Source of the DNA: Escherichia coli
Lineage (GTDB): Bacteria; Pseudomonadota; Gammaproteobacteria; Enterobacterales; Enterobacteriaceae
Reading direction: 5' to 3' (one strand)
Assembly: GCF_003334255.1 (NCBI RefSeq)
Contig: NZ_QOWU01000232.1
Length of the DNA stretch: 486 nucleotides
In this document: positions 1 to 486 of the stretch, in pieces
Numbering within the stretch: the stretch's first letter is position 1
How the letters are laid out: each line of letters begins with the position of its first letter
Notes under the pieces: generated by a model
Databases searched by the model: none
What the model saw: only the letters and a program-made list of their open reading frames with translations
Told to the model about the DNA's origin: nothing
Made by a program: the position numbers and the translations under genes

Positions 1-486
1 GAAGCTGCGCAGCGTTTCCCGGTGCAGGCGGTCGCGGGTGTACTCCACCAGCGGTGTGTCGCCGAGTTTCATGCCTGACAGCCAGCCGCTGCCGTAGGTC
101 AGCCATTCCACGGCGGGCAGGCTGTCCGGTATACAGCGGTTCGCCAGTCCCTGTGCGTTGTACGCATGTCTGGTCTCATGCTGCCAGAGCAGTTCATTCG
201 TCTGCGGATGATGCACCGTCAGGTGTTCACTGGCGAGGCGGCCTTTACTGTCATAACCATAGTGCACCGTCACCCGGTGCCCTTCGCTGATATGGCTGAT
301 GTCTGTCAGCCAGCCGCGTTCGTCATACTGCCACCGCTCTGCGGTTTCGCCATTCACGGTGCGGTGCGTGAGGCGGTCTGCTTCGTCATAGTGCCAGTGG
401 GTGACCAGCCCCTCATCCTCGCTGCGGATAAGTTTGCCGGTCAGGTCGTGGTGATAACGCTGTGTGCGGCCGTCAAAGCCGGTTTC
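1..486 (-). CDS. Rhs-family YD-repeat protein, internal core fragment (partial at both 5' and 3' ends; 162 codons, frame set by position 486)
   Basis: Minus-strand frame beginning at position 486 is open across the entire window, with no stop codon and no start required. The translation contains recurring YD-repeat motifs: RYHHDLTGKLI, HWHYDEADRLT, WQYDERGWLT, HYGYDSKGRLA, YNAQGLA, YGSGWLSG, YTRDRL. These match the Rhs/YD consensus (G-x3-R-Y-x-Y-D-x2-G-R-L) at roughly 21-24 residue spacing. I recognise this from memory as resembling the enterobacterial (E. coli-type) Rhs core; no database search was run, and the specific paralogue cannot be assigned from 162 residues. Confidence 0.9.
25..471 (-). 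repeat. Array of about seven tandem degenerate YD (Rhs) repeat units, defined at protein level within the Rhs core CDS
   Basis: Repeat units in plus-strand coordinates (encoded on minus strand): 427-471 GRTQRYHHDLTGKLI; 367-411 GLVTHWHYDEADRLT; 304-351 GETAERWQYDERGWLT; 232-282 GHRVTVHYGYDSKGRLA; 142-186 WQHETRHAYNAQGLA (degenerate); 64-111 VEWLTYGSGWLSGMKL (degenerate); 25-63 GDTPLVEYTRDRL. Spacing between the Y-D anchor positions is 22, 21, 24 and 31 residues for the first five units. Confidence 0.8.

Follow-up and report, generated by a model that had tools for sequence, protein, structure and literature searches.

Two near-identical 15-mers lie one repeat period apart in the Escherichia coli rhsC gene. 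They are very probably the codons of a structurally constrained motif in two anciently diverged YD units, between which slippage occasionally deletes one hairpin. Natural alleles lacking exactly this unit exist, and the DNA of the YD units is no more alike at synonymous positions than codon usage predicts.

Results

The 486-nt stretch of DNA that we analysed (the window) is an internal fragment of the rhsC coding sequence (1..486, minus strand), comprising codons 667–828 of 1397 in the YD-repeat shell (Rhs core), as identity, annotation and reading frame all indicate. The window is 100% identical to K-12 rhsC and to many other E. coli strains; a single open minus-strand frame spans its whole length, and its product is RhsC residues 667–828. 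Pfam finds 11 matches to RHS_repeat (PF05593) in RhsC at E <= 1e-3, those over this region at residues 637–674, 680–714 and 720–754, and the RHS-associated core domain (PF03527; E = 4.2e-16), which in this family closes the shell ahead of a variable C-terminal tip, at residues 1143–1179 (both with a scan offset of +200). The initial annotation had placed the fragment in the Rhs/YD-repeat family and named the minus strand as coding; the rhsC identity and Pfam bear out the first, and the only open frame and the rhsC annotation the second. We conclude that the window is the known E. coli Rhs/YD-repeat toxin-shell gene rhsC, already established along with its YD repeats and the structural part that they play.

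In the annotated K-12 record rhsC lies in the chromosomal order ybfA-rhsC-ybfB, adjoining kdpFAB, and related copies, one to five each, occur in about 3,900 of 5,426 complete E. coli genomes. Two plus-strand ORFs in the window, of 78 aa and 30 aa, are antisense to this well-supported gene. Downstream of rhsC-ybfB, K-12 also carries an N-terminally truncated RHS core fragment with ybfC (L001:106-3934), and the same region holds ISAs1-family (H-repeat) transposase pseudogenes, the known composite Rhs layout with an orphan tip.

At 319–333 the window reads TTCGTCATACTGCCA and at 382–396 TTCGTCATAGTGCCA; these 15-mers differ at a single base (14/15) and start 63 nt apart. Their reverse complements encode the cores of successive YD units: TGGCACTATGACGAA (382..396, minus strand), upstream as the gene is read, encodes WHYDE (RhsC 697–701), and TGGCAGTATGACGAA (319..333, minus strand), the downstream copy, encodes WQYDE (RhsC 718–722). 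The sequence and its translation thus confirm the match, the spacing and both minus-strand peptides as first described. Using a repeat HMM built on the gene we mapped 21 YD units in rhsC. Their spacings are mostly 20–21 residues, in keeping with the period of about 21 residues originally proposed, and from residue 552 to 742 consecutive units follow every 20–24 residues; the family is recognised by just such a period of about 21 residues around a core of the x-Y-x-Y-D-x-x-G-R-L type, and both are found here. On the same repeat map the preceding unit has the core YHHDL (RhsC 677–681; 442..456, minus strand) and the following unit the core YGYDS (RhsC 742–746; 247..261, minus strand), and a degenerate unit with the core HAYNA (RhsC 773–777; 154..168, minus strand) gives a weak match to the repeat HMM.

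An AF2 model of an RhsC fragment, residues 560–830, has a pLDDT of about 93 over both units and an alternating strand/turn pattern. In the WHYDE unit, strand 693–699 (L-V-T-H-W-H-Y) ends in W-H-Y and D-E-A-D-R forms the turn; in the WQYDE unit, W-Q-Y closes strand 713–720 (E-T-A-E-R-W-Q-Y) and the turn is made by D-E-R-G-W. The general pattern in the model is W-x-Y at the end of a strand and D-E-x-x-R/G as the turn. The 21-residue YD unit, encoded by 63 nt (21 codons) at 319..381, or equivalently 334–396, on the minus strand, is thus modelled as one β-hairpin (two strands, two turns). This is consistent with Rhs shells in the literature, which consist of staggered β-hairpins with YD at the strand-to-turn transition.

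Away from their cores the two units have little in common. The adjacent 63-nt units are equal at 34 of 63 bases, only 20 of 48 outside the core, and at 6 of 21 residues, 2 of 16 outside the 15-mer; their nucleotide identity of 54% ranks second among the 210 unit pairs, and this rank comes entirely from the 15-mer. The 63-nt pair is also the closest-spaced direct repeat of at least 14/15 in the whole of rhsC. Within 300 nt there is only one other such pair in the gene, CTGACAGCCAGCCGC and CTGTCAGCCAGCCGC at window 75–89 and 303–317, 228 nt apart, which encodes SGWL and RGWL on the minus strand.

The match could be a relic of duplication, or of recent gene conversion between neighbouring units, preserving DNA similarity beyond the needs of the protein. 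Such a relic would be consistent with 14/15 identity at exactly one repeat period, with the high rank of this pair among the units, and with the rarity of such matches in shuffled DNA: when the window was dinucleotide-shuffled 1000 times, at least one pair at >=14/15 turned up in just 1.6% of cases. A dinucleotide shuffle is, however, the wrong null for coding DNA. The peptides WQYDE and WHYDE by themselves force 11 of the 15 base matches and allow 14 at most: Trp is encoded by a single codon, the Gln and His codons both begin with CA, and a choice, two-fold each time, exists only at the third position of the Tyr, Asp and Glu codons. Given the peptides and rhsC codon usage, all three free codons (Y, D, E) agree with P = 0.154, and when the protein was fixed and codons were redrawn from rhsC usage, 20% of windows contained at least one pair at >=14/15. 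The nucleotide near-identity of the cores is likely a result of this structural constraint on the motif, which leaves almost no codon freedom.

Nor was synonymous-site identity above the codon-usage expectation found between the 21 YD units of rhsC. Over all 210 pairs of units, the codons coincide in 415 of the 974 columns in which the residues are identical (414.4 +/- 15.1 expected), and in 33 of 66 such columns when only adjacent units are compared (28.3 +/- 3.9 expected); and the whole gene holds 6 in-frame 14/15 pairs, compared with 5.2 in synonymous shuffles. Mean unit-to-unit DNA identity in rhsC is 38.5%, far from the roughly 70% or more shared by head-to-tail units of a DNA tandem array of the minisatellite/VNTR type, and TRF on the window at a minimum score of 30 returned 0 rows, no tandem repeat.

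A self-comparison of the whole gene, which the initial annotation had proposed as a check, gave only scattered exact matches of 10–14 nt with no periodicity. Exact 10-mer direct repeats in the whole of rhsC (L001:4291-8484) number 59, about twice the 30.7 of synonymous shuffles. The excess is largest for out-of-frame pairs (21 vs ~7) and is also present at distances up to 300 nt (11 vs 3.2). It is readable as residual DNA similarity, but the out-of-frame pattern points to oligonucleotide composition and not to repeat homology, and suggests an oligonucleotide or codon-context bias in the G+C-rich core that the shuffle does not keep.

Homologues indicate the age of the two units. Identical 15-mers stand at the same residues in rhsA and rhsB. 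The orthologous cores of rhsD, WYYDE (TGGTACTACGATGAA) and WQYDG (TGGCAGTATGATGGC), keep W-x-Y-D yet match at only 9/15, and in some wild-type rhsB alleles a second core of WRYDE lowers the match to 13/15. One gene with this second core (TGGCGGTATGACGAA; cores 13/15) is the rhsB of E. coli L73 (L034, NZ_CP033378.1), which is annotated as frameshifted. Across 28 homologues, which range down to 54% identity, W697, Y699, D700, W718 and Y720 never vary, and Pseudomonas Tse5 aligns gap-free through both units. Because these W, Y and D residues are invariant, the units are old and have been conserved separately; both are present, and distinct, in these homologues and in Tse5.

Taken together, the low similarity outside the 15-mer, the absence of excess synonymous identity overall or between adjacent units, and the divergence of the rhsD and rhsB cores largely refute a relic of duplication or conversion, which we consider very improbable. 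The DNA near-identity appears instead to be a by-product of the motif in one lineage and no trace of duplication, and we reject the initial claim of such a nucleotide-level trace on the codon columns (415/974 vs 414.4), the in-frame pairs (6 vs 5.2) and rhsD (9/15).

We searched for alleles that had lost or gained the unit using 39-nt junction probes, each a 15-mer between two 12-nt flanks, so designed that a wild-type copy matches at most 27 of the 39 nt and falls below the E-value limit. In the 5,426 complete E. coli genomes the wild-type control probe matched 10,685 places in 3,768 genomes, and the deletion-junction probe matched exactly once, in rhsC of strain LR-17-1 (NZ_AP027479.1), a deletion frequency of about 1 in 10,686 core copies. 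In the same complete genomes neither the duplication-junction 39-mer nor the deletion junction of the 228-nt pair (75–89/303–317) had a match.

The LR-17-1 rhsC gene is 4131 nt long, compared with 4194 nt, and its sole length difference is a 63-nt gap at window 319–381. The junction reads TGGCACTATGACGAA followed by CGCGGC (protein ...THWHYDERGWLTD...), and the ORF is intact (1376 aa) and followed by ybfB. Its nearest alleles elsewhere, at 99.0–99.6% identity, all contain the extra 63 nt.

A protein-database search with RhsC 560–830, followed by local alignment, yielded two further carriers, so that the deletion alleles are known from one closed genome (LR-17-1) and two draft contigs of 553 and 596 nt. 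The first, P0121 (GCA_021078905.1, locus L026), has the same 21-residue loss and the same WHYDE-RGWL junction as LR-17-1, from which it differs at 17 of 596 positions; its flanks are 100% identical on both sides to rhsB-type wild-type alleles common in many genomes, and the prefix/suffix overlap at its junction is the 9-nt TATGACGAA. The second, P0115 (GCA_051712985.1, locus L025), has the same 21-residue loss with a WQYDE-AGWL junction, in a background closest to another rhsC allele. Its junction is a mosaic (L025:99-120, JAVAKV010000288.1): at the variable position within the 15-mer it has the G (Gln) of the downstream copy, but the next two bases, GC in place of CG, are those that adjoin the upstream copy. 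One clean template switch leaves this mosaic unexplained; a polymorphism that was already there, patchy repair of mismatches or a further mutation could lie behind it. At least two independent deletion events are likely, as the alleles comprise three haplotypes and two junction types; alternatively, one deletion may have spread by gene conversion and then acquired point changes. An 84-aa junction protein query returned short fragments only and no new carriers, and is unfit for counting since it also missed LR-17-1, P0115 and P0121.

Assembly or library artefacts could in principle account for the deletion alleles, leaving the 15-mers simply as motif codons without mutational consequence. Two of the three alleles are indeed very short draft contigs of a multi-copy gene family, and a look-up of the exact LR-17-1 RhsC protein returned only its own assembly. 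A metagenome collection also contained no deletion junction, a negative that carries no weight because the wild-type control matched only 21 contigs there. We consider an artefact quite unlikely: the same precise 63-nt loss stands at the predicted junction in three assemblies unrelated to one another, including a closed genome; apart from the loss the flanking sequence is clean, and that of L026 is wild type on both sides; and a repeat of 9–15 nt is shorter than usual assembler k-mers, so that a false join would be unexpected.

We also noted other length variants of Rhs cores. In Shigella boydii GCA_014027605.1 (L031), an in-register deletion of 507 nt (169 codons, eight units) corresponds to rhsA nt 1489-1995 in L028; its endpoints, CTGATtCAGGAAAC and CTGATaCAGGAAAC, are the RLIQET motifs of two units, one at residue 487 and the other at residue 656, and the 4 proteins in its cluster come from S. 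boydii and S. flexneri. An RhsD-like gene (L032, GCA_048143025.1) has an exact 63-nt (21-codon) deletion corresponding to rhsD nt 2389-2451 in L027, with the endpoints GCCGCcGGTgGAGT and GCCGCtGGTcGAGT (PPVEW / TPLVEY). Both of these rare deletions lie at imperfect direct repeats of 12–14 nt that encode repeated peptide motifs. Five further variants, P0043, P0052, P0101, P0029 and P0056, comprise deletions (54, ~80 and 45 residues) and duplications (49 and 37 residues). Several of them do not keep to the YD period, and pseudogene fragments or misassemblies may be among them.

Discussion

We suggest that constraint on the motif and occasional slippage together explain the feature. The 15-mers would be the codons of W-x-Y-D-E cores in adjacent, anciently diverged YD units (697-701, 718-722), whose Tyr, Asp and Glu codon choices probably coincide by chance in the RhsA/B/C lineage. 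The closely spaced repeat that results may then occasionally mediate the precise, in-frame and in-register loss of one 21-residue hairpin. The most likely route is RecA-independent slipped misalignment during replication, as expected from an identity of 9–15 nt, the retention of one repeat copy and the short spacing. As the DNA repeats keep step with the protein repeat, precisely one hairpin is missing from the product.

The initial annotation had named the 15-mers as possible substrates for slippage or for unequal recombination. Slippage is supported as a rare event, by three alleles that lack exactly this 63-nt unit and keep a 15-mer at the junction. Given the recombination requirements of E. 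coli, 9–15 nt of identity is too little for homologous unequal crossing-over to be likely, and slipped misalignment fits better. Codon constraint and indels at unit boundaries had also been set against each other as alternatives; both hold.

Are the direct repeats a selected, contingency-type device for varying the number of YD units, and with it Rhs shell size? In favour of such a device, the loss preserves both the frame and the repeat register, occurs on two haplotypes or more, and spares the ORF together with its toxin tip and immunity gene. However, it occurs in only about one in ten thousand core copies, and the complete genomes contain no duplication junction; the deletion alleles form clusters of one or two sequences, compared with wild-type clusters of thousands; the gene has no array of near-identical units like those of contingency loci; and other core deletions, such as P0043 and P0052, are out of register or pseudogene-like. 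We therefore regard a selected device as extremely improbable. From its rarity, the tiny clusters and the lack of a duplication junction, we infer that the loss is an incidental mutation, and the one-unit deletion is probably neutral or mildly deleterious.

A more consequential but doubtful possibility is that the W-x-Y-D-E pair is a recurrent natural hotspot for the loss of one β-hairpin, and that the shortened RhsC and RhsB still fold, encapsulate and deliver toxin. If true, the YD cocoon tolerates single-hairpin changes, which suggests how shells of different sizes evolve. The one-unit-shorter alleles are natural variants for asking whether an Rhs shell works minus one hairpin. As a discovery, the 15-mer match carries little weight, since a constrained motif accounts for it; the biology behind the feature is already known, namely the YD repeats of rhsC and ordinary deletion between short direct repeats. 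More generally, the similarity of coding repeats should be judged against a null with the protein fixed and codons redrawn, not against shuffled DNA.

The window belongs to the RhsA/B/C subfamily of the E. coli K-12 Rhs elements (the Clade I rhs of Jackson et al. 2009, PMC2935791), and is rhsC itself. The literature that we retrieved on Rhs treats whole-core recombination and the displacement of C-terminal tips and does not discuss the loss of single YD units within a core; nor did it contain anything relevant on gain or loss of repeat units inside Rhs cores. A strongly homologous core of the same architecture is found in Tse5 of P. aeruginosa (8cp6; E = 1e-125 to RhsC), Rhs1 of Photorhabdus (7q97), the S. 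bongori Rhs core (8qjd), Tc toxins and teneurins. These solved Rhs/YD shells are experimental structures, whereas RhsC is known here from the AF2 fragment model. The second core of Tse5 is a non-canonical YD, with ERYRW aligned to the WQYDE of RhsC.

Like the VNTRs of bacterial surface and contingency genes, rhsC has a periodic coding repeat that varies in unit number. Unlike them, its units are on average only about 38% identical and go undetected by TRF, and changes in unit number are very rare.

The closer parallel is with deletions by slipped misalignment. The lacI hotspots of E. coli are the classic sites of deletion between short direct repeats. Polymerase-slippage deletions between direct and quasi-repeats have been described in the enterobacterial relative Sodalis (PMC4948707), and deletion formation in E. 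coli has been treated by Lovett 2004 and Feschenko and Lovett 1998, both as cited in that paper. As in known slipped-misalignment deletions, one copy is kept, the identity is brief (9–15 nt) and the spacing short (63 nt), and the site has probably been used more than once. What sets rhsC apart, if slippage is indeed the mechanism, is that its repeats arise from a protein motif, and the deletion consequently removes exactly one structural unit in frame.
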